From a virus: a stretch of 64,000 bases of DNA. This document shows, in pieces, positions 14,460-64,000 of this stretch (positions are counted from its first letter, which is position 1; every line of letters starts with the position of its first letter). The position numbers and the translations under genes are program-made. Location: positions 64,001-128,000 of the IMG/VR virus record IMGVR_UViG_3300037470_000672; one strand, given 5' to 3'. Below the pieces are notes generated by a model that was not told the DNA's origin, did not search any database, and worked only from the letters and a program-made list of their open reading frames with translations.

Positions 14460-14562
14460 GTCTCGGAATTTCAAATATCCGAGCATCTGTTCATTGGTGC
14501 GGGCCATATCCACCGGATTGGCCGTGGTCTCGGAATTTCAAAGATCCGAGCATCTTTTCAAC
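14460..14562 (-). repeat. Repeat-spacer-repeat unit (CRISPR-like mini-array; 34-36 nt repeats, 33-nt spacer)
   Basis: 14460-14493 and 14527-14560 match at 32/34; internal inverted repeat CTCGGA-N10-TCCGAG; no cas genes in window. Confidence 0.85.
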
Positions 14563-14564
14563 GG

Positions 14565-14918
14565 CTAAACAGCCGCGACGAACAACTCCTCGTTGTCACG
14601 CACGTCGGCCTGCGCCCCGATGCCGAAGGTCACGTCGCCACGGTTGACGAGGATGTTCCACTCCTCACCGGGTTCGAGACCATCGCCATCCATCGCCGAC
14701 TGGGACTTGCTGTGGTGGAAGTCCCGCGGGTGCATCGGCAACTCCACAGAAGAGCCGAACTCCAACGTGCCGTTGGCATCGGGCAGGTTCGCCGGCTCGT
14801 TGAAGGGGTAGGGGAGCGGATCCTCGCGCTGCCCGCCAGTGGCGAGACCGTCCTCGCCCAGACCCAGGCGGTTGAGGGTCTTGTTCGGATCCGTGGTATT
14901 TTCGATCGTAACGATCAC
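14565..14918 (-). CDS. Hypothetical, possibly decoration protein
   Basis: 117 aa, GGAGG RBS before GTG. Confidence 0.65.
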   Translation of the reverse strand: MIVTIENTTDPNKTLNRLGLGEDGLATGGQREDPLPYPFNEPANLPDANGTLEFGSSVELPMHPRDFHHSKSQSAMDGDGLEPGEEWNILVNRGDVTFGIGAQADVRDNEELFVAAV

Positions 14919-14954
14919 GTCATCCTCCGTACCCCTGTACAGGGTGTAGGCGCA

Positions 14955-14983
14955 ACAATACTCTCCGTCAGATCAAGGGTCAA
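14955..14983 (-). promoter_or_regulatory. Sigma70-like promoter TTGACC-17-TATTGT
   Basis: Intergenic, -35 at 14978-14983, -10 at 14955-14960, exact 17-nt spacing. Confidence 0.55.
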
Positions 14984-14990
14984 GCAACCC

Positions 14991-15395
14991 CTAATCCCCT
15001 GCCATGGACACGATGACCACCATGTCCACCGTCCCACCGTTGTTCACGGTGAGGGACGTGATGCCCGGGTGGGTGACCGCCAAAAACCCCACCTTGGTGG
15101 TGCCGAGCGGGGTGACGGGAAGAACCTCGGCGCCGCCGTTGAGCGCGAAGTCGAGCTGCGTCGGGGTATCCGTCTCCGTCTTGGGGCTCGTCCGCACGTA
15201 GAGGAACTTCGCCGAGGCGATGCTGGGGCAGGGGATTACCTGCCCGGCAGCGCCTGCCGGGACGACCACCTTCTGGGTAGCGCCTTCGCCTAGGTCATCG
15301 GTCTGAACCTCGTGGGAGAGGTTGCCCAGGTCTTTCTCCTCCGCTGTGGTGGATGAGATGCCTACCTCGGCCTTGAAGCGGGCGCGTACGGACAT
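14991..15395 (-). CDS. Hypothetical structural-type protein
   Basis: 134 aa beta-rich, AGGAG RBS. Confidence 0.65.
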   Translation of the reverse strand: MSVRARFKAEVGISSTTAEEKDLGNLSHEVQTDDLGEGATQKVVVPAGAAGQVIPCPSIASAKFLYVRTSPKTETDTPTQLDFALNGGAEVLPVTPLGTTKVGFLAVTHPGITSLTVNNGGTVDMVVIVSMAGD

Positions 15396-15407
15396 GGAGG
15401 GCTCCTG

Positions 15408-15698
15408 CTAAACGTCGGTGGCGTCAGACCACTCGGAGAGGGTCTTGAGGTAGGTGTAGGCTTGGGTGTGGGCGTTCGCGCCAGCCTTGTCAAAGGCAGT
15501 GAGCGTGTACGCCCACACCTTGAGCGGCGGATCGGCTGTCTTGGGGTCGACCTTGTAGGCGGTCGCCTCGGTCTGAGACCTGAAAGTCCCTAGCTTGATA
15601 GCGAGCGCACCGTCTCGCCCTGAGGCAACACGGAGCACCTGGTGGTAGGCGTTGGCCACCTGCACACTGCTGAGGGCGATGGTCTTCTGAAGAGCCAT
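15408..15698 (-). CDS. Tail fibre assembly chaperone-like, paralogue 2
   Basis: MALQKTIALSS...FDKAGANAHTQAYTYLK; follows fibre genes. Confidence 0.6.
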   Translation of the reverse strand: MALQKTIALSSVQVANAYHQVLRVASGRDGALAIKLGTFRSQTEATAYKVDPKTADPPLKVWAYTLTAFDKAGANAHTQAYTYLKTLSEWSDATDV

Positions 15699-15994
15699 CA
15701 CACATCCGTGGTGTCAGCGTCGAAGCCTGACTGACTGATCGGGTCTTTGAGCCAGTCGTACGCTTGGGTGTGGATGTTGTCAGTCACGTGAGCCTTGTCA
15801 AAGGAAAGCAATGCGTATTCTTTCTTCTCGACGGGAGGATCCCCAGCATCCGCCTGCGCCTGTCCCACGTAGGAGCAAAGTGTAAAGCGAACCCGATCCG
15901 GGTGAGCTTCATCCCATCGAAGGTGGGTGATCTTGTGATAGGCGTCTGTGAGCTGGACACCCGAAGCAGTCGTGACCGTCTTCTGAAGAGCCAT
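15698..15994 (-). CDS. Tail fibre assembly chaperone-like, paralogue 1 (start revised)
   Basis: MALQKTVTTAS...FDKAHVTDNIHTQAYDWLK; GGAG RBS; shares 19-nt identical stretch with paralogue 2. Confidence 0.6.
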   Translation of the reverse strand: MALQKTVTTASGVQLTDAYHKITHLRWDEAHPDRVRFTLCSYVGQAQADAGDPPVEKKEYALLSFDKAHVTDNIHTQAYDWLKDPISQSGFDADTTDV

Positions 15995-16005
15995 CAGGCT
16001 TTCTC

Positions 16006-18774
16006 CTATGAGTCCTTCGAAACCGTGTACCGCGCCACGCCTACCCAATGCGTATCTACACGCACGCCTGCATTCGACAGCGCCACAAGCCTCACGATCC
16101 AGTCCGAACCGATCGAAGCCGTGTAGGTGGCCAGCGTGGTGAACACCGTCTCAGTGAACGAAGCTGGCGCCCCACCAAGCTCGCGGCCTTGCTCCGTGAT
16201 TGCGACCGTCGATTCAAACGCACCGCCGTTCGGTCCGCCGTCGGATCCTTTAGCTGCAAAGAATCCTCGGATAACTATACTGTAATGGAGTGTCCGGGTA
16301 GCAGAGCCTTTGGCGGTACCTGATAGCTCAAGAACAAGGTCTACCGATGCGTTATCGGTGGCTAGATCGGAGAAAAAGAAGTTGTAGAGAACAGTTCCTG
16401 TAGCGCCATCCGCTGCCAGCGCCGTGAAATCTATAAACTCCTCGAAGAGTTGCTCGCTAAGCGTTGCGTCCTCTTGGAGGAAGATTTTGCGTCCGGCGGA
16501 CAGGGGTAGAGGTCCCATGTCTAGTGGCTTGGCGAATTCTACCTGTGCGTTGTTTGATGTCAGATCGCCGTCGAGGAAGGTATCTCCTGACACATTAAGC
16601 TGATCGTCTACTGTGAGGTCGTTTGTAACTTGGGCCGTTCCCGCAAAAAATACGTTTCTCACGCCGTAGAGGAGTGCCCAAGCCGTATCCAACCAGGAGG
16701 CTGCTGCCGCTGGGTTAACTGCAACCGCAAAATCAGCAGCAAGATGTGGCGGAGCGCCGCCGCAGAAGACAGCAAAACCCCCAAGGGCCAGGTCAGCCAC
16801 CCAATCTGCGGTAGCTTCACGCCACCGGGCGTTCTGGGTGATGACAAAGCCAGGGTCCGCCGTAGGGGAAACGGCTGTCCGGGTGTACAGGCGCACCTTT
16901 GCGGTCCCGGTGTCCATTTCCCAGAGCAGCGTGTATCGGGGGTCTACGGCATCTGCGGGAGCCGTGTCGGTGAGAATCCTAGGGGTTTCGTGGTTGCCTG
17001 CGGATCCGACCAGATCTCGCCCAAGCTCCGTCGTTTGGTCGGGGTTCACCTCCAAAGCGCGGAAGTCACCATTGATTGTCACGTCGTCCAGAAAATCCGT
17101 GAGCGCGACCCCGAATAACCCACCCACGTGATCTATCTCACGCAACCACGCCGTCTCGACAAAAGGGCTGGCCCCTGTGTGGTAGTCAACGCTCGGCCCG
17201 ACGCTTTTGAAGCTCCCGTCGAGATTGTGGAAATCGCCCAAGATGACGCGCGAGGACTCGTTACCGCCGACATCCTTGACCCACTGCGCTCCGGCGTGGT
17301 CGTACCGGGCGTTGGTGGTAACCGCCAGGGATAGTCCGGTCGTAGAACCGGCGGGGAAAAACCCGTAAAGCCGGGTGTGCCACACCGCCGCACCGTCGGC
17401 GTCGTTCTCCCAGAGCAGGGTCCACTGGTCAACCACCGCTCCGGCCCGTCGGGATGCAGTCAGGAACCGGGTAAGCTCGGCCTGCGCGTCAGACGAAACC
17501 AGACGGGTCAGAGAGAGGCGCGCGGTGTCGAAGGTGGGTTGGCTAGCGCTGACGTCATCGCCATCAACGCGAGCGTGCTTCAGCGTGCCGGACCCAGGAT
17601 CTCGAAGGTACGAGGCTTCGGGGTAGCCAGAGAAGTCCTCACCGCCGCCGAAACGCAACTCCTCCACGCTCGGGTACGATGAAGCCAGTCCTAGGAACCG
17701 CGCATCAGTAGGACGGCCCTCCCACCAAACCTGTACGCTGTCTACATGGAAAGCATCGCCAAGTGAGTTGAAAGTGATGTTATTGAAGAACACTTCGAGA
17801 TGAAGAAGTCTGGTCTGGGAAAACCCACTTACGTCGAAGACGTCTTCCAGGGTCCGGTACGCGCCAACTGACGCCGTCATTGGATCTATGATCCGAACGT
17901 CGACGTCCGCTGTACCGTCTGCTCCCGCCATCACCAACCGGAACTGCAAATCACCAGCGGCGGCTGCCTGGTCTACACGGACCCGGACACGGACACGTGC
18001 TCGCTGCCCAGAGATGTTCCTGACAGGGACCTGAAGAGGGTACAGCGCGCTAGAGCCGTTGAAGCTACCGGTCGACGTAACGACCCATCGCAGGCTTTTG
18101 AGCCCTACGTCAGCGTCGGGTGCGGATTCGTGGATCTCCCAGTTTCCAACGCCCGTTCCGCCAGGAGGTGGAATCAGGCGCCAGTAAAACGCCGCGCGCT
18201 CGTACACCGCGCTCGACTCCGCACTTTGAAAGTCCCCGTTCTGAAGGAGCGGCGTCCACAGCGCCCGATCGGTCCCCTCGTTCTGGTAAGCAGCGCGACG
18301 CTCCAAGGCGCGCACATCCGCAGTCACAACCGGCACAGCGCCGGCTGGCACATCTACCTGTCCCACCACCACGAGCCGGCGCTGGTCGGCTGCGGAGAGG
18401 GCGCTGAACTCCGCCTCGGTGAAAGACTGCACCTCGAAGGTGGTGGGTGTAACGATCGTGTAGTCAGGTACCAAAACGAGGAAGACTGTCGTACCTGCGA
18501 GGGCTGCCAGGTCGATGTTGAACGAACCGACCACCCGCACGGCTACGGCAAATCCCGTGTCGGTCAGGCCGATGGCGTAGCTGTCGCCGGTGTCCGGGTC
18601 CGGATCGAGCTGAACGGTCTGATTGAACGCCCCGTTGGGTGCGAGGGTGAAGCCTCGGTAGACGCCGGCCGGCGCCTCGATTGCCTGTTTTTGGTTGAGC
18701 CCGTCCGTCGCCCGAACCTGGTTCAGGCGCATGTTGAACTCAATGTCGGCAAAGGTGTGGACGATGGTAGGCAC
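16006..18774 (-). CDS. Tail fibre / receptor-binding protein 3
   Basis: 922 aa; N-terminal domain paralogous to the two upstream fibres (FADIEF...GVYRGF); galactose-binding-like module (LLQNGDFQ). Confidence 0.75.
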   Translation of the reverse strand: MPTIVHTFADIEFNMRLNQVRATDGLNQKQAIEAPAGVYRGFTLAPNGAFNQTVQLDPDPDTGDSYAIGLTDTGFAVAVRVVGSFNIDLAALAGTTVFLVLVPDYTIVTPTTFEVQSFTEAEFSALSAADQRRLVVVGQVDVPAGAVPVVTADVRALERRAAYQNEGTDRALWTPLLQNGDFQSAESSAVYERAAFYWRLIPPPGGTGVGNWEIHESAPDADVGLKSLRWVVTSTGSFNGSSALYPLQVPVRNISGQRARVRVRVRVDQAAAAGDLQFRLVMAGADGTADVDVRIIDPMTASVGAYRTLEDVFDVSGFSQTRLLHLEVFFNNITFNSLGDAFHVDSVQVWWEGRPTDARFLGLASSYPSVEELRFGGGEDFSGYPEASYLRDPGSGTLKHARVDGDDVSASQPTFDTARLSLTRLVSSDAQAELTRFLTASRRAGAVVDQWTLLWENDADGAAVWHTRLYGFFPAGSTTGLSLAVTTNARYDHAGAQWVKDVGGNESSRVILGDFHNLDGSFKSVGPSVDYHTGASPFVETAWLREIDHVGGLFGVALTDFLDDVTINGDFRALEVNPDQTTELGRDLVGSAGNHETPRILTDTAPADAVDPRYTLLWEMDTGTAKVRLYTRTAVSPTADPGFVITQNARWREATADWVADLALGGFAVFCGGAPPHLAADFAVAVNPAAAASWLDTAWALLYGVRNVFFAGTAQVTNDLTVDDQLNVSGDTFLDGDLTSNNAQVEFAKPLDMGPLPLSAGRKIFLQEDATLSEQLFEEFIDFTALAADGATGTVLYNFFFSDLATDNASVDLVLELSGTAKGSATRTLHYSIVIRGFFAAKGSDGGPNGGAFESTVAITEQGRELGGAPASFTETVFTTLATYTASIGSDWIVRLVALSNAGVRVDTHWVGVARYTVSKDS

Positions 18775-18784
18775 TGCTGGTCCG

Positions 18785-21040
18785 CTAACTCTGTTCGGCG
18801 AAGACGGAGAAGTTTACAAACAAGGTGGAGGCGAAGTCACGGGCGTCTACTTGAACGGGCGCGCCTGCTCCTGAGATATCCCATATCTCGATGTCGAAGT
18901 CTGCCCCGGACTGCGATTCGACGGTCGCGATCAACAAAGAGGGTGAGATCGACAGGTCTACCTGGGCCTGCACTTGGTAGTCGTCGCTGCTGCCAATACC
19001 CAAGCCGCCTGCAAGCGTAACACGGATGCCTCGGGGAACAGATACCGTGTAGGCCACGTTCCCGGTACCGATGCTGAAACCATTGCGCACGGACGGCGGG
19101 TCGTCTGCACCAGCGTTCCCACAACGGACGCGCCCCCACATCGCTGGGAAACTCTTCGCACGCAGCTCATTCTTCACCACATCCGTAAACGGCCCATTGG
19201 ATCCACCTGCGCCTGTTGTCGGACTTGGAACGGTGGCGTGACCGTCCGTGATGGCTAGCGTCTTCGTCGCCAGCGTGAACACAAAAGATGTGAGCAGAGT
19301 GAGCTGTGCGGAGGTCAGAGTAAAGTTGCTCAATGAGGTTGTAAACAGATCGGCTGCATCGTTTACCGAAAACTTGCTAGAGAACAAGCTAAACAAAGTG
19401 CTTGTTAGCAGCACACTAGAGTCAAGTAAAAGTGTCGCTGTGTTGGTAAACACTGCTGGGTTACTATCCCATGAACCTTCGGCCCATGGACCGGACACTG
19501 TTTTGTGTTGCAAAGTGAGTGCTACATTGGTGAGCAGCAAGCGCATGGAGCTGTCTGCGATGTCCTGCGACCACATGGAGGTCGCTTCGTCCCAGACAGC
19601 GTTGGTCGTAATCGCGAGGAGACCGAGGCTGCTGACATAAATCCTTGTAGCTCGCCCTCCGGAGGACGCGCTCTCCCACAGCAGATTGTAGGAGCTGGTG
19701 GAGAACACCGGCGCGGAGACACGAGCCGTCTGCGCATTCGCGGCTGTGTCGCCAAGCCCTGACCCGAGCAGAAGACGCCCAGCCATACGCAGTGCGGGGT
19801 CCCGGCTCTTGTCGTTGAGCAGGTCCCGCATCCGTTGGAGGTCGAGGAACGCCTCCGTCGGATCTGAGTCATCGACCGCAAGCTGAACACCATCTGAATC
19901 CTGATCGGCATCAGGGTCACGAAGGGTCAACGGGCCGGCTTGTACCTCGCGTGCCCACGCCTCCTTGAAGAGGTACGGGTTGTCCGGCCCAACCGTCTGC
20001 ACCCACACTTGTACCTGATCGACGCGGAAGACCACGCCCGCCGAACCCACCTGCACGTCGTCTACCTGAAGCTCGATGCGTCGCAGCAGGGCCGCCCCTG
20101 TTGGGGGAATGACCGTGTCGGTGAAGCGCACAAAGGCACCGGAGACTCCCTGCGGCGTGAAATCCACGGAGGTTGTCGTGAGGTCAGTGCCGTCCTTGTC
20201 TACCCAACCAAGCTCGAAACGGATGGCGCCACCTACGGTCGCGAGGGACGGCTGCTGGATGAACGCTTCCAGGCGAACAGAGGGGGCGTGGTCGACCGGG
20301 ATGTTCACGAACTGCCGAAGGAGGGCCAGGTCGACGGTAGTTGTAAGGGGTCCGGGGGCTGCCAGCTCGACCGATCGTACTCCTGCGTGGGTAGCGGCTT
20401 CGGTGATCGTCCAGGTGTAGCTGTCGGTGGCAGAGAAGAACCAGCCGTCTGCCAAGCGGCTCTCGGCTGGGGTAACGGCGCCGGTACGAGCGTTTTCGAA
20501 GCCGCTGTTGAGAATGATGGGGGCGAAGAAGATTTCTCCGGACGACTTCGCCCGCCAGGCATCGGAGCGGAAAGACGCGGAGATGTCGGTTGCTACCAGC
20601 GGGACGGCCGTGGCCGGGACGTCCACTGTTCCCAGGGCGGTCACTTCCAGGCCGGCAGCCCCGGTGAACTCATCTGTCGGCGACAGCTCGAAGGCTTGGA
20701 GACGAGAGACGGTCGTGAAGCCGACGTCGTACTCGCCAGCGAGGGCCAAGACGACGCGCTTGCCGGCGAAAGCGGTCAGGTCGACGGTGAAGTTTCCGAT
20801 GCGGCGTACGGATAGATTGACCCCAGAAGCAGTGAGCAGAGCGGCAGCGTGGTCGCTGCGTTCGGGGTCGCCCTGGACCTCTACTGTGCGGGGCGCTGCA
20901 CCGGGAGTGAGGCGAAAGCCGCGGTAAATGCCGGGAGCTTCGCTGGCGACGAACTTGCGGTTGATCTCTTGGGTGAGCAGAGCCGACTTGGTCCGGGCTT
21001 GGACCTCTGCTGCGCCGAAGGTGAGGAGCGTAGCGGGCAT
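18785..21040 (-). CDS. Tail fibre / receptor-binding protein 2
   Basis: 751 aa; GIYRGFRL, ILNSGFE module, C-terminal AMWGRV...DDYQV fibre-tip pattern. Confidence 0.75.
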   Translation of the reverse strand: MPATLLTFGAAEVQARTKSALLTQEINRKFVASEAPGIYRGFRLTPGAAPRTVEVQGDPERSDHAAALLTASGVNLSVRRIGNFTVDLTAFAGKRVVLALAGEYDVGFTTVSRLQAFELSPTDEFTGAAGLEVTALGTVDVPATAVPLVATDISASFRSDAWRAKSSGEIFFAPIILNSGFENARTGAVTPAESRLADGWFFSATDSYTWTITEAATHAGVRSVELAAPGPLTTTVDLALLRQFVNIPVDHAPSVRLEAFIQQPSLATVGGAIRFELGWVDKDGTDLTTTSVDFTPQGVSGAFVRFTDTVIPPTGAALLRRIELQVDDVQVGSAGVVFRVDQVQVWVQTVGPDNPYLFKEAWAREVQAGPLTLRDPDADQDSDGVQLAVDDSDPTEAFLDLQRMRDLLNDKSRDPALRMAGRLLLGSGLGDTAANAQTARVSAPVFSTSSYNLLWESASSGGRATRIYVSSLGLLAITTNAVWDEATSMWSQDIADSSMRLLLTNVALTLQHKTVSGPWAEGSWDSNPAVFTNTATLLLDSSVLLTSTLFSLFSSKFSVNDAADLFTTSLSNFTLTSAQLTLLTSFVFTLATKTLAITDGHATVPSPTTGAGGSNGPFTDVVKNELRAKSFPAMWGRVRCGNAGADDPPSVRNGFSIGTGNVAYTVSVPRGIRVTLAGGLGIGSSDDYQVQAQVDLSISPSLLIATVESQSGADFDIEIWDISGAGAPVQVDARDFASTLFVNFSVFAEQS

Positions 21041-23961: not shown

Positions 23962-23988
23962 GGTTCAGTAGTACGTCAGAAACACAGC

Positions 23989-24516: not shown

Positions 24517-24529
24517 GTCAGGCTCCTAG

Positions 24530-25210: not shown

Positions 25211-25214
25211 GGGG

Positions 25215-28763: not shown

Positions 28764-28779
28764 CCGCCCGTACGGGCGG
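28764..28779. repeat. Palindrome family copy 2
   Basis: CCGCCCGTACGGGCGG between TAA (28781) and GGGAGG RBS of the wedge gene. Confidence 0.9.
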
Positions 28780-49088: not shown

Positions 49089-49111
49089 GTCTCGGGTTTA
49101 GAGGCTCCGAG
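49089..49111 (-). repeat. Degenerate hairpin-repeat copy abutting RBS
   Basis: CTCGGAGCCTCTAAACCCGAGAC then GGAG; keeps CTCGG/CCGAG arms and terminal GAGAC. Confidence 0.5.
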
Positions 49112-52580: not shown

Positions 52581-52590
52581 TGAAACCGTC

Positions 52591-53358: not shown

Positions 53359-53389
53359 GTGCAGTCCTCTCCTCTGATGCGATCGGGTG

Positions 53390-53839: not shown

Positions 53840-53867
53840 CGTCGTCTCTCCCTGATTTGAGCCCGGC

Positions 53868-54668: not shown

Positions 54669-55147
54669 TAGAGCTTTCCGCCGCTGTTGAGGCGCGAGGT
54701 CACCTCCCTGACAATCTGGGTGAAGAGTAACAGAGCTTTGGGGAGGTGCTTGTCGAGGTTGCCCCAGGTTTCTCCATCAGAGACCTCGAAGCTGGGCTCT
54801 GCCTGATCGGTATCCGGGCGGTATTCCGCCAGGTACCGCAGGTGCTGCCGGCAGATCCCTACGATACGGGTTTCAGATCCTTTGACCCGGATGGCGAATT
54901 CCTTCGGCTGCCCACAGACAAAACACCACCGATCGAGGCTCGGCATGATGCCCTCATACTCGGGGAAGGCGTGCCCGGCCATGGGGGAGCCACACGGCTT
55001 GCTCGCTAGGCAGAGGTGTCCGGGAAGTCCTGCATCCCTGGCTCGCCAGTAGTAGATACAGGACGAGCAAACCGCGGAGAGCCCGGCCTCTTGAGCCGCT
55101 TTCATCCTGTCAACGTCCAACCAGCTCGGCTTTGGGAGATGGGTCAC
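54668..55147 (-). CDS. Cys-rich hypothetical protein
   Basis: CSSC, CFVC, C..H candidate zinc ligands. Confidence 0.6.
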   Translation of the reverse strand: MTHLPKPSWLDVDRMKAAQEAGLSAVCSSCIYYWRARDAGLPGHLCLASKPCGSPMAGHAFPEYEGIMPSLDRWCFVCGQPKEFAIRVKGSETRIVGICRQHLRYLAEYRPDTDQAEPSFEVSDGETWGNLDKHLPKALLLFTQIVREVTSRLNSGGKL

Positions 55148-55719
55148 GGCGCGATCCTACGCTCCGGCGTGAACTCGGTCCGCCTCTTGACCGTGAGCCG
55201 GAAATTGACAAAGGCAGCTTCGTTGTTGACGTGCCCATCGCTGTCGACGTTTTCGACGTCGAAGGCGAACTTTCGACCGGGTACCGGTGCATGATCGACA
55301 CCTTCCTCATTGAAGAAGGGTATGTCCCAAACCTGAACCACATCCCCTACGAGAGGGACGCGCATGCCGGCGGCCTCCACAATGGAGCGGGGAATGGTGA
55401 TGATGGCATCCCATTCGGCGCGCTGACCTTGTTCGATGGTTTCGCGGATAGGCTCAGGTTTGTCGAAGGAACCCTTGAGCTTGTAGGGACCTATCCAGAC
55501 AATGTGGACCGGCTCATCATAGAGCGGATCGCGCTTGGACCGCTCCATGTCGCGCACGAAGTACAGTATCTCCGTCCCCGAGATGGTCGCGCTGTGCTCG
55601 GTGGCGTAGGTGTCAAACAAAAGACGCTCGACCTGAGCAGCCAAGGACAAGTCGAACGAGCCTTTGCAGGGCTCGCAAAAGCTGGTGGTAGGGAACGGCT
55701 CCAGTTTACCCTTGGTCAT
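55144..55719 (-). CDS. gp14: Neck/head-closure protein
   Basis: GTEILYF..D...RDPLYDE...P..GDVV; follows gp13. Confidence 0.7.
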   Translation of the reverse strand: MTKGKLEPFPTTSFCEPCKGSFDLSLAAQVERLLFDTYATEHSATISGTEILYFVRDMERSKRDPLYDEPVHIVWIGPYKLKGSFDKPEPIRETIEQGQRAEWDAIITIPRSIVEAAGMRVPLVGDVVQVWDIPFFNEEGVDHAPVPGRKFAFDVENVDSDGHVNNEAAFVNFRLTVKRRTEFTPERRIAP

Positions 55720-55738
55720 GCGGCCTACCCATCACCCC

Positions 55739-56485
55739 TTAACCTGTCAGGAAACCAAGCGGGAAGCCGCTGTCAAAAATCTCCTCTTCCAACCGATCTC
55801 GCTCCTCTTGGGCTTGCTCGTACAGCCGGTCTGCGTTGAGCGTGAGCGTACCTTGCGCGGAGGGGTATGCATCGTACTTGCCGCGCACCAGGGACAACGT
55901 TCCCTTGGCTTCGGCCAGTGCTTTGCGTCTGATCAGATCGTGGTCTCGGAACTTCAGGTGCTCCAGGGTGACGCAGTTGGGTTTGTAGAAGATGACCGCC
56001 TTTAACGGGTTGGAACCCAACGCATCAGAGCTGATCCTATAGACGAGAAAGTAGCTGCGCTCGCCTCGTACCACCTCCCATTCAGGCTCTACCGAGATGA
56101 TGCGCTTGGCCATCTCAATGTACTGAAGAGACTGCACGAACGAACTGTAGAGCCCTCCTCCGCGTGGGTTGGCGAAGACGTCGTACGGGATCTTATCCAC
56201 GAACGCGAACGGACTGAAAATTGTCGCGAAGTCCAATTCCCGCTCGGCGAACACCACCTCGAAGACAGTGTCAACGTCATCGGGTAGCTCGACGCGCGTT
56301 TCGTTCGGGATCAAGTCTTTCTCTAAGACCCTTTCGATACCCTTCTTGGCGATGAACCACTCGATGGCGTCATCGATGGCGTCGTCGAGCTGCTCCTGTG
56401 ACAACTCGACACAGATCAGTGGCCCTCCGAGCTTGCGAAGAAGCCACTGTTCCAGCTCTGCTCGGGTCATCAGCCGCTGGGCCAC
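55739..56485 (-). CDS. gp13: Neck/head-tail adaptor protein
   Basis: LRKLGGPLICVELSQEQLDDAIDDAIEWF...RGKY....G.LTLNAD.LY.QA.EE. Confidence 0.85.
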   Translation of the reverse strand: MAQRLMTRAELEQWLLRKLGGPLICVELSQEQLDDAIDDAIEWFIAKKGIERVLEKDLIPNETRVELPDDVDTVFEVVFAERELDFATIFSPFAFVDKIPYDVFANPRGGGLYSSFVQSLQYIEMAKRIISVEPEWEVVRGERSYFLVYRISSDALGSNPLKAVIFYKPNCVTLEHLKFRDHDLIRRKALAEAKGTLSLVRGKYDAYPSAQGTLTLNADRLYEQAQEERDRLEEEIFDSGFPLGFLTG

Positions 56486-56495
56486 AAGCTCTCCT

Positions 56496-56520
56496 GTCTC
56501 GGAATTTCAAAGATCCGAAC
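56496..56520 (-). repeat. Hairpin-repeat copy directly abutting the gp13 RBS
   Basis: 24/25 identity to 14527 copy; followed immediately by AGGAG. Confidence 0.9.
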
Positions 56521-56558
56521 GCTCTTCTGTGCATCCTTTCATCGCTGGGACGACGGGA

Positions 56559-57098
56559 TCAACTCTCCTCGACGTCGAACATCACCTTCAGCAGGTACGC
56601 CCGCAGCTCACCGACGAGTCGGACTTCGGCAGGGATCTCGATCTTGGCGGCGTCCGCCACCGCCTTCAGGTCTTTGCCCGTCATCCCCATCAGGCTGTCC
56701 GCCGTGAGCGCAGATTCCTCAGCCTGCTGTTCTTCTTGCTGCTCTTCCTGCTTCTCGACTTGCTGCTCTTTCGCCCCCTGAGCCTCTGCGTCACCCGCTG
56801 CCTTCTCTTCCTCGCGCGTCTGCGTGACCGGGTCTTCTTGGGGCGGCACAGGGGTCGCGGAGGGGGTAGATGACGCAGCCAGGTCGGGCTCGGTCTTCTT
56901 CGCAGGAGGTGACAGCGCAGGGATCACACGCACGATGGACGGAGCGGGCGGTGTGAACGGCACGAGGAGCTTTCCACCGGCCGGAGTCGCGAACTTCGCC
57001 CACTGCTCGCCAATGAGCACGGCGCCGTCTCGGACGCGACCGTAGCCGGGGACAAACGCCTGCTGGACGTCAGGATTCTTGGTGTACTGATGTTCCAT
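56559..57098 (-). CDS. Protein with low-complexity linker and C-terminal HeH/Rho-N-like module
   Basis: LTADSLMGMTGKDLKAVADAAKIEI...ELRAYLL. Confidence 0.55.
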   Translation of the reverse strand: MEHQYTKNPDVQQAFVPGYGRVRDGAVLIGEQWAKFATPAGGKLLVPFTPPAPSIVRVIPALSPPAKKTEPDLAASSTPSATPVPPQEDPVTQTREEEKAAGDAEAQGAKEQQVEKQEEQQEEQQAEESALTADSLMGMTGKDLKAVADAAKIEIPAEVRLVGELRAYLLKVMFDVEES

Positions 57099-57363
57099 TT
57101 GACGATGTCTCCTGTTTCTCGTGGGGAACAGCGGCCAGGTCTTCCAAGCCCTGGGCGAGGGCCTTCAGTTCTGCGAGTTGGCCCTCGATGAAGAGTACCT
57201 TCTGCTGGATGCGAAGCGCCACTTGTCGGACGAGTTGGCGGTCTTCATCGGGGAGAGGAGCGGGCGGCGTCTTGCTACGCATCTTCGCGGCCTCGCCCAG
57301 GGAGGGCGCGTTCAGGGCGCCGATGGCGTTCAGCTCGCGCTCGATCTCTTCGGGGGTGGGCAT
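57070..57363 (-). CDS. Hypothetical coiled-coil protein
   Basis: 97 aa, AAGGAG RBS. Confidence 0.6.
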   Translation of the reverse strand: MPTPEEIERELNAIGALNAPSLGEAAKMRSKTPPAPLPDEDRQLVRQVALRIQQKVLFIEGQLAELKALAQGLEDLAAVPHEKQETSSNGTSVHQES

Positions 57364-57402
57364 GAGGAGGCTCCTTGGTCCGACATCCTGGGGCTGGGAA
57401 AC

Positions 57403-57431
57403 AGAGTAGCGCGGGGAGAACGAAGAACCAA
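57403..57431 (-). promoter_or_regulatory. Sigma70-like promoter TTGGTT-17-TACTCT
   Basis: Intergenic downstream of the homing endonuclease; exact 17-nt spacing, weak consensus. Confidence 0.35.
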
Positions 57432-57443
57432 CCGCCTACTACT

Positions 57444-58472
57444 TCAAACCACATTGGCGAGGACAGAACCCTTTCGGCGCTTGAGGCGCAAGAATTTACG
57501 CTCTAGCCGCAATCCGGGAGCGGTGCCCGTATAGAGCCTACGAGCAACAAGGTCACGAGCGTCACCATTGAACCACACGGTGCGGGCACTGATATAACGT
57601 TCTCTGTCGTCGGTCTCCCACTCGACTTCCTGAATATGCCCTGGTTTCTCGCCGATGAAGTCAAGCAGCCAGTCTAAGAAGAAAGGAGACCCAGATGTAA
57701 ACGCCAATGAGTTACCACGTTTGTTAGCGTGACCGTCCCCATCAAAGCAACCCCGGAGAAAGTGCCATAACAGAGTATCGTCTCGAATCTTTGGCGGCTT
57801 CAGTGTTAGAGATTTTGCCGGGGTTATGCTGTAGTACCTTTCCAGGGCCTCTACCCAATCGACACTACACACATCCAACCAGCTATACACACGACCTGTG
57901 TTGTTGGGTTTGTCCCTTATGGGCTGGTCTAGGGTAGCGAACAGCTTGAGACTTTCGAGAATGCAGCGGTCCTTTGGGTGTACTCCAAAGGCTACAGATC
58001 TACGATTTTGCGGGACACACCCATCGGCTGCCACGAAGCCGGCGAAGTACGCAGAAACTGGGGTAGGGGTGCGAAAGAAGTCCCGATCGCACTCGGTATA
58101 CTTTGCGTACACCCGATCGGGTTTCGCTTCTCGTCCGCTGCGTCGGACGGCTTCTTGGATCCGGCCGAACGAGACCCCAAAGATCGCCCCCACCTCCGCC
58201 ATGGTCATTTTCTCGTTTGCGAAGTACATCTCGACCGCGGCGTCTGTGTCAAAAGTTGGCGGACTCGCTTCGCGATGAGAACGCGTTCGGACGCCTCGCT
58301 CCCGTAATATCTGACTCACACGCCCTTGGCTTACCCCAAACTCGGCCGCAAGTTGCGCCTGGGTCAGGTTTTTTCCTTCAGCAAGGGCCTGCGTATAGCG
58401 GTCAACCACGGCCTGGGCCGAGTGGATACGACCTCGTGGTTTGAGGTCTTTACGTCCTTTTGGCCTTCCCAT
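57444..58472 (-). mobile_element. Free-standing LAGLIDADG homing endonuclease with N-terminal HTH repeats
   Basis: YFAGFVAADG and HFLRGCFDGDG motifs; two HTH segments; visibly lower GC than flanks. Confidence 0.9.
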
Positions 58473-58480
58473 AGTCGGGC

Positions 58481-58509
58481 ATAGTAGTACATCAGAAGAA
58501 GAACGTAAA
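58481..58509 (-). promoter_or_regulatory. Sigma70-like promoter TTTACG-17-TACTAT for the endonuclease
   Basis: -10 ends 9 nt before ATG; -35 abuts terminator. Confidence 0.45.
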
Positions 58510-58539
58510 GAAAAGGGCGACCTTAGGCCGCCCTTTTCT
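58509..58539 (-). terminator. Intrinsic terminator after capsid gene
   Basis: AGAAAAGGGCG / CGCCCTTTTCT inverted repeat followed by T-rich tract on minus strand. Confidence 0.85.
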
Positions 58540-58558
58540 CAAGCTATCTCTAGCGCGG

Positions 58559-60082
58559 CTAGAGATTTTGCACCCTGATCTGACCGTAGTAGTCAGGGCG
58601 GAGGAGCTTCTTCGCGTACCGGGTCCGCAGACCCTTCCTGAAGCTGAAGTCACTCGGATCCAGGAATGTTGGGGTGACCTGGAGCGGGATGTAGGGCGCC
58701 CACACGAAGCCGGCTTCCAGGAAGTGCATGCCCTTGAGCCCCACCAGCATCTGGTCGGTGCTGAAGAACGGGTCCTCGTAGACGCGCCACTTGTTCATCA
58801 TGGTGCCGGTCCGGTAGATGCCGAACTGACCGTGGGTACCCATGGGGCGCGGCAGATCGACCGGAGCGTCGATGGCCATGCCTGCTGAGTACAGGGGCTT
58901 GAAGTCGCCGTGCGTGGTGAGTTGGGCGAACAGGGCCGAGACCTCGGGCGAGGTCACGATGAAGTTCGCCGGCTGCCGCAGGGTCTTCTTGTGGATGGTG
59001 TTGGCCACGGTCGAGATGACCGTGATCATGGATCGCAGGTGGTCGTGCTCAGTGATGCCAGCGGGTACGGCGCGGTCGAAGACGCCGGTGGTCCCGGTGC
59101 TGTTCTGGAACAGCTCCTGGATGATCTCGCGGTCAATCTCCAAGGAGATCTCTTGCGCCACCGCCGAGACCAACTCGGTCTCCGCATCGATGCCGTGGAA
59201 GGCCCGGAGGTCTTCCGCAGCCTCACTGCTCCACAACGCCTTGAGGCGGCGCGGGACCGCTTCGACGGGCGCCTTGCGGACGTCCAGGTTCACCTGCGGG
59301 ATCTTGGTGTTCAGCTCGCCGTCGTAGAAGTAGAACACCTTGATCGAGTTGCCCGCTACCGGCGCAACCGTGAACAGGAACCCGGTGAGCGAGCCGTTGG
59401 CGTAGTTGAGCGAACCGGCGGTCACGTCGCCCGTGAACCCACCCGCGCCGTTGTCCACTGCTTCCTGCACAGTCGCGCCCGCCGAATCCAGCTCGCGGAC
59501 GGTGACCGAGAAGCCGCGCTCTGCGTTGAGCGGACGGACCGGCGTGAAGCCGAGGTTGACGTCCAGACCGGTGCCCACACCACCGAAGGCTGCGCCGTCC
59601 CCCACCGCGGCGATTTCACCGTCGATGAACTCGGACGAGTAGTCGCGGTTGAAGTCGCGTGGGAAGACGTTACCTGCGGTCGTCGACCCCTTGGTCGTGC
59701 CGTAGATGTAGTCCAGGAAGAAGACGGCGCCGATCGGCGCAGTCATTGGTTGGACAGACACCAGCTCGTGCGCGATGAGGTTGGGAAACACCCTCCGCAA
59801 GATCGGGAAGATGTACTTGGTGAACGGGCCGACGTTGCCACCGCGCGTCTCCTCGTCGATCAGGCGCATGGTCTGTGCATCGACGCCGCGGAGGTGCTGG
59901 GACTGGTTCTCCATGAGCATCGCGGTGAGGCCGAGCACGTACCGCTGCTGCTCGCTGCGATCCGGGATGCCCTCCAGCAGCGCTCCCCACTTGTTGATGC
60001 ACTGATTCACGTAGCCCCGTGCGAGGACCGTACCCTGACGATCCTCCCCCGGGACGCCTTCGACCATCTGTCGCGCTTCCAT
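58559..60082 (-). CDS. gp23: Major capsid protein, T4 gp23 family
   Basis: KWGALLEG, LIAHELVSVQPMTAPIGAVF, RRLKALWS.EAAEDL..HGIDAE.EL, EIDREII, PYIPLQ. Confidence 0.97.
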   Translation of the reverse strand: MEARQMVEGVPGEDRQGTVLARGYVNQCINKWGALLEGIPDRSEQQRYVLGLTAMLMENQSQHLRGVDAQTMRLIDEETRGGNVGPFTKYIFPILRRVFPNLIAHELVSVQPMTAPIGAVFFLDYIYGTTKGSTTAGNVFPRDFNRDYSSEFIDGEIAAVGDGAAFGGVGTGLDVNLGFTPVRPLNAERGFSVTVRELDSAGATVQEAVDNGAGGFTGDVTAGSLNYANGSLTGFLFTVAPVAGNSIKVFYFYDGELNTKIPQVNLDVRKAPVEAVPRRLKALWSSEAAEDLRAFHGIDAETELVSAVAQEISLEIDREIIQELFQNSTGTTGVFDRAVPAGITEHDHLRSMITVISTVANTIHKKTLRQPANFIVTSPEVSALFAQLTTHGDFKPLYSAGMAIDAPVDLPRPMGTHGQFGIYRTGTMMNKWRVYEDPFFSTDQMLVGLKGMHFLEAGFVWAPYIPLQVTPTFLDPSDFSFRKGLRTRYAKKLLRPDYYGQIRVQNL

Positions 60083-60137
60083 TGTTTCTACTCCTCAGAG
60101 GGGTTTTTGTGGGAGGGGATCTCCCGGGGGTGGCCTG

Positions 60138-61928
60138 CTACGAGGCCGACAGTCGCTTGATTTCATCGAGAGAAAGGCCGGTGCCGTTGTAACTCGCCCC
60201 GGATCGAGCGTCGCTGCTTGCGTGAGCTTCCATCACCGGTTCGTTCGGGTTGGAAATGTCGTAGTCCAATCCGCCCGTACGGGCGGATTGGGGCAGTTGG
60301 GGCGCCGGCTCGACATGGCTGACGGAGTTGGAGCCTGCCAAAGCGCGCACACGGGCACGGATGGCATCGACCTGGTCCGATTCGGACATCGGGCGGCGGA
60401 ACTGGTCCAACACCTGATCCACTTCCGCTCGGTTGGTCGGCGGGTTCTCCTCGAAGTGGCTGACCATCTCCGCACGGCGGGGGTGGTGACGAAGTCGCTC
60501 GGCGATGTAGGCGTCGATCGCTTGGGCCTTGTTGAGAGTTACCGACTTCTCCAACGCCTCTTTGAGCTGGGTCATCTGCGTTTCGAGGGCCTGAACTCGC
60601 CGATCGGACTCAGACTTGACCTTGTTCATCTCCTTCTGCCGCGCGTCCTCTTGTGCCTTCTTCTCGGCCGCGCGGCGATCCAGCTCTTCTTGGACAGCGG
60701 AGACCTTGGTGGCGATCTCTTCAACAGATCCGTAGCTCGCCACGTCACCGACGATGCTGCGGATCAGATCGGCGTCGGCGCTCCCTTGAAGCTGTTGCTC
60801 CAGATAGAAGCGGTAGCCTGCCTTCTTGGCCATCGCTGCGAGCTTGTTGACCTGGTCTTCGAGCTGGACCTTCTCCTTGGAAAAGGAGCTGCGCTCGGTC
60901 GCGAGCTGGCCTTCCAGCTTGTCGATGCGGTCTTCGAGCTTGGCGACGACCGATTCCTCATCCTCGGAGAGGACGTAGGGTCGGATGACGGTCTTGATCT
61001 GTTCGACCGCCTTCATCGCGCCAGCCAACTTCGGATCGGAGAGCATGTCACCACGAACCTGCTCGGCAATCTGCTCTTTGGCGTCGACGATCTGCTGGGT
61101 CACCTTCTCGGTGACCTGTTTGACCGCCTCGTCCTTGCCCTTTTCGCGCCCGGCCTCTTCGGCTTGGAGGACGCGCTTCTCGGCATCCTCGGTGAGCTTG
61201 GCGAGTAGGGCATCTTTTTCGGCGAGCTGCTCTTGCATCTCTCGGGTCGCCTGGGCCGAGATGGCTTCAAACAGCTCGGGATGCTGTTCCTTGAGCTGCT
61301 CCTCGGTGAGGTCTTGGATCTCCATACTCAGGTTCCCCTTGTTCTCTTGGAAGGATTCTGGCCACGCATCGCGGTCTGCTGGATCGGCGACGGCGTCGAA
61401 GGTGACCAACCGGAAGCCGGGTTGGACTACAGATTCACCTTGCGCGTTGGTCCGTGTTGCGCCGAAGCCTCTGGAAGAAACACCGACCTGACAACCTGCT
61501 TCGACGATGGCTTTGAGGTTCTGTCCGCGCGCGGTGTTGAGAATCTCTGCTTCACCGTACATCACACCATCAGGTTGAAGGTCCAACTTTGTGATAACGT
61601 GAGAAATACGGTTGAGGCTTGTACGACCATCCAACGGATGGTCGGCTTCCCCGAATACACGACGCTGTTCAATCAGAGGTTGGAGGCGCTTCAGCTCCTC
61701 CGCTACGAGATTGCGCGGGTATAGGCGCTTGTTTTCGGTGGCCCGATCAGCGCGACCGAACTCACCCTTAAGGATCCACTTCTTCGGCGCACCCTCTACG
61801 ACTTCACGCTCTTCAACGACCAGAGGTGTCGACGGGTAGTAGACCCCTTCGATGAGACCCACCTGTCCCTGCGTGTCCTCCAAGAGGGCGCGACCGATTT
61901 TTTTGGCTGGGGTAGGGGGTGTACTCAT
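60138..61928 (-). CDS. gp21: Prohead protease (gp21-like) fused to coiled-coil scaffold
   Basis: NKRLYP, GEADHP, ISHVIT, GVSSRGFG, TFDAVADP; C-terminal ~400 aa charged helical. Confidence 0.9.
   Translation of the reverse strand: MSTPPTPAKKIGRALLEDTQGQVGLIEGVYYPSTPLVVEEREVVEGAPKKWILKGEFGRADRATENKRLYPRNLVAEELKRLQPLIEQRRVFGEADHPLDGRTSLNRISHVITKLDLQPDGVMYGEAEILNTARGQNLKAIVEAGCQVGVSSRGFGATRTNAQGESVVQPGFRLVTFDAVADPADRDAWPESFQENKGNLSMEIQDLTEEQLKEQHPELFEAISAQATREMQEQLAEKDALLAKLTEDAEKRVLQAEEAGREKGKDEAVKQVTEKVTQQIVDAKEQIAEQVRGDMLSDPKLAGAMKAVEQIKTVIRPYVLSEDEESVVAKLEDRIDKLEGQLATERSSFSKEKVQLEDQVNKLAAMAKKAGYRFYLEQQLQGSADADLIRSIVGDVASYGSVEEIATKVSAVQEELDRRAAEKKAQEDARQKEMNKVKSESDRRVQALETQMTQLKEALEKSVTLNKAQAIDAYIAERLRHHPRRAEMVSHFEENPPTNRAEVDQVLDQFRRPMSESDQVDAIRARVRALAGSNSVSHVEPAPQLPQSARTGGLDYDISNPNEPVMEAHASSDARSGASYNGTGLSLDEIKRLSAS
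60266..60291. repeat. Palindrome family copy 3 (26-bp perfect palindrome)
   Basis: CCAATCCGCCCGTACGGGCGGATTGG equals its reverse complement; inside scaffold CDS, ~185 nt upstream of capsid start. Confidence 0.9.
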
Positions 61929-62110
61929 CGTTCTCGTTTCCAGAACTTGGCTTTGAAGGGACCTCGATCGAGGATGCTGGGCTTCTTCTTGACTTCGCGC
62001 TTCTTCGGTTTGAGCCCCGTCATCAGGTCGCTGACTCCAAGAATCTCCCGCCAGGTACTACGGTAGGCGGTCCGTCGCTTTCGATGACCACCATAACCCT
62101 CGTGGATCAC
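61925..62110 (-). CDS. Small basic head-module protein
   Basis: GTG overlaps upstream TGA (GTGA); 61 aa; KPKKREVKKK. Confidence 0.55.
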   Translation of the reverse strand: MIHEGYGGHRKRRTAYRSTWREILGVSDLMTGLKPKKREVKKKPSILDRGPFKAKFWKRER

Positions 62111-63651
62111 TGCGGTCCTGGCTTGCCCTTCTCTTTCGCAGCCCACTGGGCCATCTTCTTGGCGCCGTACTTCTTCTGTCCGATGGCCGCCGCCACCGCT
62201 TTGGGATCTTGGATGTCGGGGCGCTTCTCCAACTCCTTCGCCAGGGCGGCGAAGCGACCCCCCTTTCCCGTCTCGGAATTCCAAGGATCCGAGCGTCCTT
62301 TCAACCCAAAAGGGGCCTTCTCAGCTTCCATGACGGCCTCCTCGGGGAGAAGGTGCTCGTAGCAGGCTGCGAGAAAGGTGATGTCGTTGTCGTCGATGGA
62401 TTCCTTCTTGTAGCCGTTCTTCTTTGCGGCCTTCATCCCCTTGACGACCTTCATCGCCTCATCGCCGGGCATGTTGGCGAGCTTCACACCCATCTCAACC
62501 ATACCTTGCACAGCGTCCAGGGTGTCATCCTCGGACATGGTCGCCATGCCGACGAGCTTGTTCTTAAGACCCCTCACGTATGCCGGGATGTCGTCATCGG
62601 AGAGCGACTCCAGCTTGACGGCGACGCCCTTCATGAGGGCCAAAGCGTCATCGTCCGACAGTCCTTCGAGCGCGCTTGCGGCAAGCGCGATGACAGCCAG
62701 GTCTGAACCCTCAACCTGGTCCTCCTCCTCCGAGTCGGCGAAGAGGCTCACGTCTTCGATGAGGTCGTCGTAAATCTCCAACATCTCCAGAAACGTGCTG
62801 AAGAAGAGCTTGAAGTCCTCTTCAAATTCCGCCGCGTCGGTGTCGCCCAACTCGTACTCATGCAACGTCTCTGCATAGTCAGCAGCGGTCTCGGCCAGGG
62901 CGTTGACGGCCTGGCAGAACTCGATGACGCCTTCGCGGATCTCGTCATCCCCCTCCTCATCGAAGAGGTCTGCCTCGACCATCTCGGCGAGGGTCTCCTC
63001 GACCGGGACGAGTTGATGGGCAAGATCGTTGGCAGCCAGCGAGAGCGACGCGAACGCCTGCGTGTTCTCCAACACCTTGGGCGCGAGCGAGACCTTACCG
63101 GCTGCCTCCATCAGATCGTTGAGATCGGCGATCAACGCCGTCAGCGCATCCGCCTCCACCCCTTCCTGTGCAGGCGACGGACGGCGCAACGTGATGCGCT
63201 TGACACCTGACTTGCGCAGGTGGCCGAGGCGGGACTGCGCTCGCTTGTAGAGGCGCTTGAAGCGTCGGCCCGCGGCCGATCGGCGCCACTTCTTGACCAT
63301 GCGCTTCTTGACGGCCTTGACACGGCGGTACTTGCGACGGGCGAGACGTCGTTCACGACGAATCTCAGCGCCGCGCTCCTGTCGCATAATACGTGCGGCT
63401 TGCTCAGACAAGTCCGCCAACTGGTCGTCGTCCAGATCTGCTTGGTCGAGAAGCCGGGAGATCTCCGCCGCGACGCGCGCCACGTCCAGATCGACCACTT
63501 CTGCTGGGTGAGGGTCTTCCTGACGAGTGGAGTCCTCCACGATAGGAGCAGACGGCGGGGGGTTGACGATTCGCTGCACCCTTTCATCATCGCGTACCAA
63601 CCCGATGAGGGCGAAGTCTTCGGCAAGAGAAGAGAGCTTGGGCTGGGTCAC
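62107..63651 (-). CDS. Prohead core protein (gp68-like basic segment plus acidic domain; start revised)
   Basis: GGAGG RBS before GTG 63651; RRERRLARRKYRR...KWRR basic run; C-terminal GGRFAAL...AAAIGQKKYG module. Confidence 0.65.
   Translation of the reverse strand: MTQPKLSSLAEDFALIGLVRDDERVQRIVNPPPSAPIVEDSTRQEDPHPAEVVDLDVARVAAEISRLLDQADLDDDQLADLSEQAARIMRQERGAEIRRERRLARRKYRRVKAVKKRMVKKWRRSAAGRRFKRLYKRAQSRLGHLRKSGVKRITLRRPSPAQEGVEADALTALIADLNDLMEAAGKVSLAPKVLENTQAFASLSLAANDLAHQLVPVEETLAEMVEADLFDEEGDDEIREGVIEFCQAVNALAETAADYAETLHEYELGDTDAAEFEEDFKLFFSTFLEMLEIYDDLIEDVSLFADSEEEDQVEGSDLAVIALAASALEGLSDDDALALMKGVAVKLESLSDDDIPAYVRGLKNKLVGMATMSEDDTLDAVQGMVEMGVKLANMPGDEAMKVVKGMKAAKKNGYKKESIDDNDITFLAACYEHLLPEEAVMEAEKAPFGLKGRSDPWNSETGKGGRFAALAKELEKRPDIQDPKAVAAAIGQKKYGAKKMAQWAAKEKGKPGPQ
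62270..62305 (-). repeat. Hairpin-repeat copy inside core-protein CDS
   Basis: 32/36 identity to 14527-14562. Confidence 0.9.
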
Positions 63652-64000
63652 GGCGAATCCTCCGGACTCACGTCGGCTTGGGCAGCAGCTTCTACAAAAC
63701 ACCGCGCCACAGAGATTGGAAAGAGAACTTCCGACAGAACGTTGCGAAAATCGGCAAGTGTGTTGACGCTCGCGTCCTGTTGGATTGTGAGCACCTTCTC
63801 CGCAGCGGTACTGACCGTCTCTAGGTGCTCGGACAACTCCACTTGGACCCTGTCCGCGAGGCTATCAGCGCCATCTCGGAATTCCAAAGAACCGAGCGGC
63901 CTCGCATCCCCAAAGTCGAAGCTGTTGAGCTTGTTGCGCTCATCCCTAAGCATGCGCACCAGGTCTTCAAGATCGGTAACGACCTGCATTCGGTCATCAT
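63648..64000 (-). CDS. Head-module protein, probably 5'-truncated by window edge
   Basis: Frame stays open beyond ATG 63989 to window end; stop coupled to next gene. Confidence 0.55.
   Translation of the reverse strand, partial: DDRMQVVTDLEDLVRMLRDERNKLNSFDFGDARPLGSLEFRDGADSLADRVQVELSEHLETVSTAAEKVLTIQQDASVNTLADFRNVLSEVLFPISVARCFVEAAAQADVSPEDSP
63874..63897 (-). repeat. Hairpin-repeat copy inside CDS
   Basis: 22/24 identity to core of 14527 copy. Confidence 0.8.

Follow-up and report, generated by a model that had tools for sequence, protein, structure and literature searches.

Lone repeats of a phage-borne type V-M (Cas12m) CRISPR system as candidate Cas12m handles in the messages of a T4-like phage

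The stretch of viral DNA considered here, a window of 64,000 nucleotides (nt) that corresponds to bases 64001-128000 of the 175,906-bp record IMGVR_UViG_3300037470_000672, harbours a dispersed family of 36-nt hairpin repeats, and the placement of several of its members next to ribosome-binding sites raises the question of what reads them and to what end. Copy counts given below refer to the whole record, a T4-like phage genome of 176 kb and 60% G+C, which features T4-type genes for the portal (with an intein), gp21, gp23, gp13, the sheath and gp19 as well as about 14 tRNA genes. An original prediction, made from the window alone, had envisaged an RNA element recognised by a phage or host protein. 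A strand-specific RNA element indeed fits the data, and the protein that reads it is very probably Cas12m of the phage itself, whose gene lies beyond the window. Judged by the sequences of repeat and protein, the 36-nt family is almost certainly the repeat of a CRISPR system of type V-M (Cas12m) that belongs to the phage itself. Among the options raised earlier, a CRISPR-repeat mimic came closest, although the element is in all likelihood a genuine repeat of a phage-borne V-M system with arrays and not a mimic; a processing enzyme of the Cas6 or RegB kind is not involved.

The effector gene is located on the minus strand, 6 kb to the left of the window (genome 56196-57974; L003:16196-17974), and encodes a protein of 592 amino acids (aa) whose residues 18-544 match the PDB entry 23vw, 'Cas12m', with an E-value of 2e-80, while the match to MmCas12m (8pm4) reaches 3e-23. 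The protein comprises a Cas12f1-like TNB domain (PF07282 at 1.3e-10) and a zinc ribbon, and it has kept the D-E-D residues of RuvC; the motifs AIDVG, LEKFD and DQDENAA and two CxxC pairs are present as well. Its closest homologue, at 48% identity, is likewise followed by an array in the same layout but with another stem sequence. Relatives of Cas12m are present on at least 64 viral contigs of IMG/VR, and dozens of these viral loci carry arrays with periods of 72-75 nt. A search for Cas1 (PF01867), which did not extend to Cas2 and Cas4, found none in the 176-kb record, the completeness of which is estimated by CheckV at 83%; the lack of Cas1 is usual for V-M systems.

The genome contains 29 full copies of the repeat, 28 of them on the minus strand, in addition to a single truncated copy, and thus far more than the original prediction had reported. 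The full copies are distributed over a 6-repeat array, a 3-repeat array, the 2-repeat unit of the window (14460-14562) and 18 lone copies. Identical repeats, spacers of 37-42 nt and an A/T-rich leader characterise the 6-repeat array, which lies just downstream of the tRNA cluster and runs across the contig ends. The 3-repeat array, which starts 23 nt past the stop codon of cas12m, has spacers of 38 nt, and the last of its repeats is degenerate. With array periods of 73-78 nt, the phage displays what defines an array of type V-M, namely direct repeats of 36 nt between which unique spacers of comparable length are placed. The array spacers had no match among GenBank phages, and two spacer 22-mers were absent from IMG/VR. 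Two observations on the less regular members may be added. The contig ends (L001:1-420 and L007:7767-7906) overlap via the main array yet disagree, one reading spacer 1-repeat-spacer 5 and the other spacers 1 to 5, which reflects either heterogeneity of the array in the population or an assembly shortcut across the repeats. The truncated member (genome 148699-148726; L006:699-726; 25.7 bits, E = 8e-5) is devoid of the loop and of the 3' strand of stem I and constitutes a perfect 14-nt palindrome, CTCGGAATTCCGAG.

Within the window, a search for the 25-nt core of the repeat with at most 3 mismatches yielded five matches and none in 100 shuffled sequences, which establishes the family as real and retains five of the seven window copies reported originally. 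All five are located on the minus strand, as are the genes of the whole window, so that the shared orientation claimed at the outset was upheld. The copies were scored with a covariance model built from the family. The exact family consensus occupies 14527-14562 (minus; 60.6 bits, E = 5e-15), begins 2 nt past the stop codon of an upstream 117-aa gene and forms the first repeat of a two-repeat mini-array; a 31-nt spacer without a confirmed target (14496-14526, minus) separates it from the second repeat (14460-14495, minus; 52.7 bits), which has an intact scaffold part behind 11 diverged nt at its 5' end. Behind this second repeat, a GGAG motif starts after 3 nt and the ATG of a 94-aa gene (14163-14447) follows at +12. 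An SU10-type portal gene of an unrelated IMG/VR phage (L086:6319-6340) contains, on its sense strand, the opening 22 nt of the mini-array spacer; this match is judged to be due to chance because three other, unrelated metagenome genes, all of which encode ..TANPVDM.., share the 22-mer and none of the matches extends any further.

The remaining three copies of the window are lone repeats in the region of the structural genes. One of them (56496-56531, minus; 41.8 bits) is situated in the leader of a T4 gp13-like neck gene (55739-56485); only its 3' part of about 26 nt is recognisable, and it is followed immediately, at 0 nt, by AGGAG and at +10 by a GTG start codon. The other two lie in frame within open reading frames (ORFs), at 62270-62305 (minus; 58.9 bits) within an ORF of 514 aa (62107-63651) and at 63873-63908 (minus; 44 bits) within an ORF of 304 aa that follows the portal gene and extends past the right end of the window. 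Both ORFs sit between the portal and prohead protease genes, in agreement with the prediction that copies occur inside head and neck coding sequences; their homologues in a 180-kb relative are too diverged for a comparison that would reveal whether the two intragenic copies are insertions. The notion that copies abut Shine-Dalgarno sequences holds for 14460 (3 nt) and 56496 (0 nt) and fails for 49089, since the degenerate copy reported there (49089-49111, minus), although hairpin-like with CTCGG...CCGAGAC, scored 3.8 bits with an E-value of 8.2 in a covariance-model search of 7.9 kb, that is, at chance level, and is rejected. Similarly, a half copy proposed at 55943 was not found by the covariance model and is likewise rejected.

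The architecture of the repeat identifies the system to which it belongs. The stem CTCGGA/TCCGAG, correctly recognised from the start, pairs columns 13-18 with columns 29-34 (equivalent to -8 to -3), and its six pairs are formed in 96% of the cells across 21 distinct copies. A second stem connects columns 6-10 with columns 19-23, and in both stems together 92% of the cells are paired, as opposed to 18-63% when the partners are slid. In the structure of the Cas12m2 CRISPR RNA (crRNA), a stem is stacked on a pseudoknot helix, the 3' strand of this helix occupies -8 to -3 and is followed by a conserved A and C, and the 5' end, -36 to -30, is disordered (PMC10442227); the two stems of the phage repeat fit this stem and pseudoknot layout. 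The characterised Ms and Tf repeats of type V-M start with GUAGCAA or GUUGCAA and end with a hairpin and GAGAC (PMC11013384 supplement), and the phage repeat agrees with them in its hairpin, in GUUG.AA at the start and in GAGAC at the 3' end. Because of this V-M crRNA architecture, comprising stem, pseudoknot helix and 3' GAGAC end, the repeat is regarded as a genuine CRISPR repeat of the phage's own system. Rfam returned no match for the repeat, the only matches in the window, L001, L003 and L007 being tRNAs, and may hold no V-M repeat family.

The substitutions among the copies are in line with a structured RNA, albeit not always in the way foreseen. The C-to-T change in the copy at 56496 yields a U.G pair (pair 13-34) in minus-strand RNA only, as had been stated. 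On the contrary, the covarying inner pair proposed earlier, between columns 21 and 25, did not withstand scrutiny: it is paired in 57% of the distinct copies, 9 of 21 show C-A, and 425 of 500 shuffles reach its score. Column 21 pairs with column 8 (G-C in 11 copies, A-U in 5, G-U in 4 and another combination in 1), and pair 8-21 is the only one that changes on both sides. Covariation is stronger in comparisons among systems, which build the same helices with differing sequences.

Compared with the described type V-M systems (MmCas12m2, GoCas12m, MsCas12m; PMC10442227, PMC11013384), the phage system shares the effector homologue, the 36-nt repeats with stem, pseudoknot and GAGAC, an array that immediately follows the gene, spacer lengths of about 37-42 nt, the lack of Cas1 and the carriage on a mobile element. 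It differs from them in that it resides in a virulent-type T4-like phage and encompasses three short arrays together with 18 dispersed, sense-oriented lone repeats. MvCas12m of myxophage MV-1, which has been termed the first phage Cas12m, is accompanied by one array (bioRxiv 10.64898/2026.09.14.751636). Both systems are phage-borne, contain D-E-D and an adjacent array, are devoid of adaptation genes and have spacers for which no targets were found, whereas the dispersed lone repeats are an additional feature of the phage described here.

In a genome that is about 86% coding, 16 of the 18 lone repeats are intergenic. Seventeen are on the minus strand; the single plus-strand copy (genome 62486-62521) lies inside a plus-strand gene cluster, and all lone copies but one follow the local gene strand. 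Most are flanked by small ORFs without known function and fall into the early regions at 33-44 and 56-63 kb, one is located inside the tRNA cluster and another 72 nt past a tRNA gene. Nine end 10-26 nt ahead of a start codon, seven of these with a GGAG-type Shine-Dalgarno sequence, and among the genes behind them are the gp13-like neck gene, the gene of 304 aa that follows the portal gene, a 310-aa gene and a UvsX/RecA-like gene. In two cases (genome 34346 and 142359), the upstream ORF stops on the repeat's own TGA. The mismatches of the lone copies to the consensus are unevenly distributed, amounting to 28% at positions 1-8 and 7% at positions 9-36 (p = 3e-10), and the variable positions 1-8 correspond roughly to the disordered 5' end of the crRNA in the Cas12m2 structure; the lone copies keep the part that would be held by Cas12m and vary in the 5' part that would be cut off.

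Comparison with other phages indicates how such copies are distributed among lineages. In phages with a 62-67% identical gp13, the upstream gene is separated from gp13 by only 14-26 nt, which include no repeat, while the gap measures 73 nt here, and the copy in the gp13 leader is hence a lineage-specific insertion. Four other Cas12m phages (G001, G003, G005 and G006) were scanned for lone copies of their own V-M repeat; G001 (110 kb, complete) possesses 4-6, which are on the gene strand and include two degenerate repeats ahead of its cas12m, and G006 (202 kb) at least 3, so that the layout is recurrent (two of the four) but not universal. In the region at genome 62486-62597 (L004:2486-2597), a plus-strand and a minus-strand repeat face each other across a gap of 40 nt. 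The palindromic hairpin of the second repeat family described below lies on one side of the pair and a terminator-like hairpin with a run of T on the other side, and the pseudoknot helix of the plus-strand copy contains two mismatches.

Characterised relatives of Cas12m provide a clue as to what a lone repeat might do. These proteins, D-E-D forms included, bind DNA in dependence on a protospacer-adjacent motif (PAM) without cleaving it, and they process their own pre-crRNA by cutting upstream of the scaffold, so that the scaffold and a guide of about 17 nt are kept (PMC11013384, PMC10442227). The Cas12m of this phage would presumably bind and process its repeat likewise. Since the lone copies stand in sense orientation within presumably transcribed intergenic regions, the mRNAs of the phage should carry a Cas12m handle, and since the relatives cut their own pre-crRNA in the repeat, a lone repeat on the sense strand should be bound and cut alike. 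With moderate confidence, we therefore favour the view that Cas12m may bind and cut phage mRNAs at the lone copies and thereby control translation or stability. Next to the observed identity of repeat and protein, the layout and the conservation pattern, we infer transcription, binding, cleavage and an effect on expression at these sites; a translational operator and a processing site, both named at the outset, would be the leading functional readings for the lone copies.

In the proposed sequence of events, the handle in a phage mRNA would first be bound by Cas12m, whereupon the RNA would be cut just upstream of the handle, as in pre-crRNA. Cas12m would then stay on the new 5' end and take up the following stretch of about 17 nt in its guide slot, and at nine copies this stretch would hold the Shine-Dalgarno sequence of the next gene. 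As an outcome, neighbouring cistrons would be uncoupled, and translation or stability of the downstream message would come under the control of Cas12m. Phage proteins that act on RNA at or near the Shine-Dalgarno sequences of phage messages are familiar from T4 in the form of RegB, RegA and gp32; no sequence or protein relation connects these to the present system, in which the element is a 28-nt structured CRISPR handle. Tentatively, and with more doubt than attaches to binding and cutting as such, the proposal can be widened: the phage may have turned Cas12m into a regulator of its own genes by placing handles in about 18 transcripts that are cut so as to leave ribosome-binding sites in the guide slot, which would constitute a regulon over neck, head-assembly, recombination (UvsX/RecA-like) and accessory genes, and the same RNAs might guide Cas12m against repeat-free relatives.

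Several points weigh against control of phage messages by Cas12m. Proximity to a Shine-Dalgarno sequence is expected for any insert in a short intergenic gap, and the uniform orientation could also result from selection that disfavours inversions arising between copies of opposite orientation. At genome 62562, a minus-strand copy is embedded in an apparent plus-strand operon. At 2-4 lone copies, a sigma-70-type promoter follows 46-85 nt downstream, which would place those copies at the 3' end of a transcription unit and not in a leader. Moreover, arrays and lone copies would be competitors for the same Cas12m. Covariation within the genome is weak, as 38 of 500 shuffles reach the observed score and a single pair contributes to it, the two variants of pair 8-21 possibly tracing to a single event. 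None of 21 public runs, all of them soil or sediment metagenomes kept as contigs, supplied an RNA dataset carrying the phage. Finally, the Cas12m phages G003 and G005 have no lone copies, from which it follows that the layout is not needed for the system.

Among the alternatives, the one that fares best treats each lone repeat as a one-repeat crRNA gene. By the logic of TnpB and its omega RNA, the phage sequence downstream of the repeat would guide Cas12m to repeat-free DNA, such as that of co-infecting relatives or 'empty-site' alleles, while the phage's own copy would be spared, its PAM position being taken up by the repeat. A repeat with a guide behind it is all that type V effectors require, silencing by Cas12m works through DNA binding, and the lineage-specific repeat in the gp13 leader, absent from the relatives described above, would suit such a use. 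We nevertheless consider it rather unlikely, as no shared PAM-like motif was seen upstream of the repeats and guide seeds of 11-12 nt recur in the phage genome at a random rate (8/27 versus an expected 19%). A related use is known from tracr-L of Cas9, CreA of CreTA and the crlRNAs, in which a degenerate or single repeat with a short guide serves the effector in gene control and not in immunity, via partial matches to promoters elsewhere (bioRxiv 10.1101/2024.12.27.630466). It would suit a non-cutting binder like Cas12m, and G001 has degenerate repeats before cas12m, but in the phage studied here partial matches do not exceed chance. The G001 locus (L009:9700-9940) consists of a near-consensus promoter with an extended -10, then two degenerate repeats and then cas12m, as would be expected if the effector were autoregulated through an RNA derived from the repeats.

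If Cas12m did not act at the lone copies at all, they might be by-products, segments of the arrays that the phage's recombination spread and that were kept only where harmless, and would serve at most as recombination points for the shuffling of cassettes, an explanation that we judge unlikely. The concentration of most of them around small early-region ORFs without known function, the ORFs that end on a repeat's TGA, the two copies inside ORFs and the two Cas12m phages without lone copies would all be accounted for in this way, and so would the uniform orientation, provided that inverted copies cause lethal inversions. On the other hand, decay is uneven in that the scaffold for Cas12m is kept and the 5' part is not, and one common substitution is compensated in the stem. 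Presence/absence variation is also missing: the interval at genome 109.7-130.5 kb is 99.99-100% identical in six independent assemblies, all six with identical repeat copies, and the contigs of four further runs, which represent the same phage at low depth, revealed no presence/absence variant of any repeat across genome 30001-50000. Apparent contig joints in these four runs were array contigs mapping onto lone copies and were dismissed as variants. The model for such recombination points are the PeSLs (promoter-early stem-loops), which Arbiol et al. in 2010 reportedly described as intergenic repeats of about 40-50 nt that share one orientation, occur in T4-type phages and hold an early promoter. 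PeSLs and lone copies have in common that they recur in intergenic gaps of T4-like phages, between small accessory genes, and keep a single orientation; the element considered here, however, is devoid of a promoter and is a CRISPR repeat.

A decoy function appears improbable. Viral solitary repeat units, RNA anti-CRISPRs termed Racr, bind Cas proteins and mimic host repeats; they have their own promoter, number few per genome and are not linked to cas genes (PMC10651486). By analogy, the lone copies could be RNA decoys that soak up a host V-M effector or buffer the phage's own Cas12m: such Cas-binding units are established, the lone copies are likewise single, mostly intergenic viral repeats that keep the Cas-binding structure, and the copies inside the tRNA cluster, which is highly transcribed, and 72 nt after a tRNA gene would be well placed for this purpose. 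In contrast to Racr, the repeats are those of the phage's own system, since the phage itself encodes the matching effector and three arrays; they are embedded in operons, and 18 copies are far above the described cases. No strong sigma-70-type site was found upstream of any lone copy, the nearest ones being downstream and other promoter types lying outside the search, so that the own promoter of a Racr is lacking at this level. In addition, the exact 22-mer of the repeat core was absent from the viral, species-genome (185,579 species genomes) and metagenome collections.

Promoters of the phage itself form a separate set. With -35 and -10 hexamers, A2 and T6 in the -10 and a spacing of 16-18 nt as the criterion, 20 strong sigma-70-type sites (TTGACA-N16-18-TAnnnT) were recovered from the genome; 19 of the 20 are intergenic and co-oriented with the genes, and they are found at genome 8-62 kb and 149-172 kb, where they mark early regions. 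No repeat is among these 20 sites or among the four sites of L073, and the T4-type late promoter TATAAATA is absent from the genome. That the element acts as DNA, as a promoter or as the site of a dimeric regulator or activator, which the original prediction had named as its main alternative, is hence scarcely credible, for although its 5' TTGAAA resembles a -35 box, its core is palindromic, the sites are intergenic and some copies follow hairpins or a terminator, the repeat has no usable -10 and falls short of the promoter criterion next to the phage's own clear set of TTGACA-N17-TAnnnT sites, its TTGAAA (GUUG.AA in RNA) characterises the V-M repeat family in other organisms as well, the U.G pair and the change from G-C to A-U can be understood only at the level of sense-strand RNA, and regular arrays with unique spacers are not promoter-like.

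Apart from the CRISPR repeats, the genome contains a second repeat family, which consists of the perfect palindromic hairpin CCGCCCGTACGGGCGG, usually flanked by AAT and ATT. Thirteen exact and two near copies are present, mostly just after genes and without a U-tract, and the element may be a 3'-end or processing hairpin. Copies in the window are located at 14145-14160, 28764-28779 and 60271-60286, and with two changes at 10504-10519; three of the hairpins of this family lie 4-9 nt upstream of a Cas12m repeat.

The phage has been seen in soil and sediment metagenomes of 19 studies, and no close relative was found among GenBank phages. A 222-kb contig with identical genes, including the same gp13, exists. 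Just to the right of the window, the portal gene (genome 128618-132745; L005:618-4745) encodes a T4-type protein of 1375 aa that is lengthened by its intein, which in turn carries HNH and helix-turn-helix domains. Between the gp23 major capsid gene and the neck genes, an ORF of 342 aa (57444-58472 of the window, minus) shows weak to faint Pfam matches to the Sigma70_r4, helix-turn-helix and LAGLIDADG families and may, by these matches, encode a homing endonuclease or a DNA-binding regulator.

In the literature, Cas12m, phage-borne arrays and viral solitary repeats are each known, while many lone repeats of an own V-M system within operons were not found described. From bacteria and plasmids, Cas12m is known to act in defence, silencing invaders through DNA binding; here it occurs within a phage whose genome is studded with lone handles for it. 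Comparable processing of mRNA is accomplished in synthetic biology by 'insulators' based on Csy4 or Cas12a. If the handles are used, the phage would offer a natural case of a class 2 CRISPR effector that organises the processing or translation of mRNAs from a virus's own genes. Because the layout recurs in some distantly related Cas12m phages, such a use may be general, and, if true, it would widen the view of the purposes that virus-borne CRISPR systems can serve.

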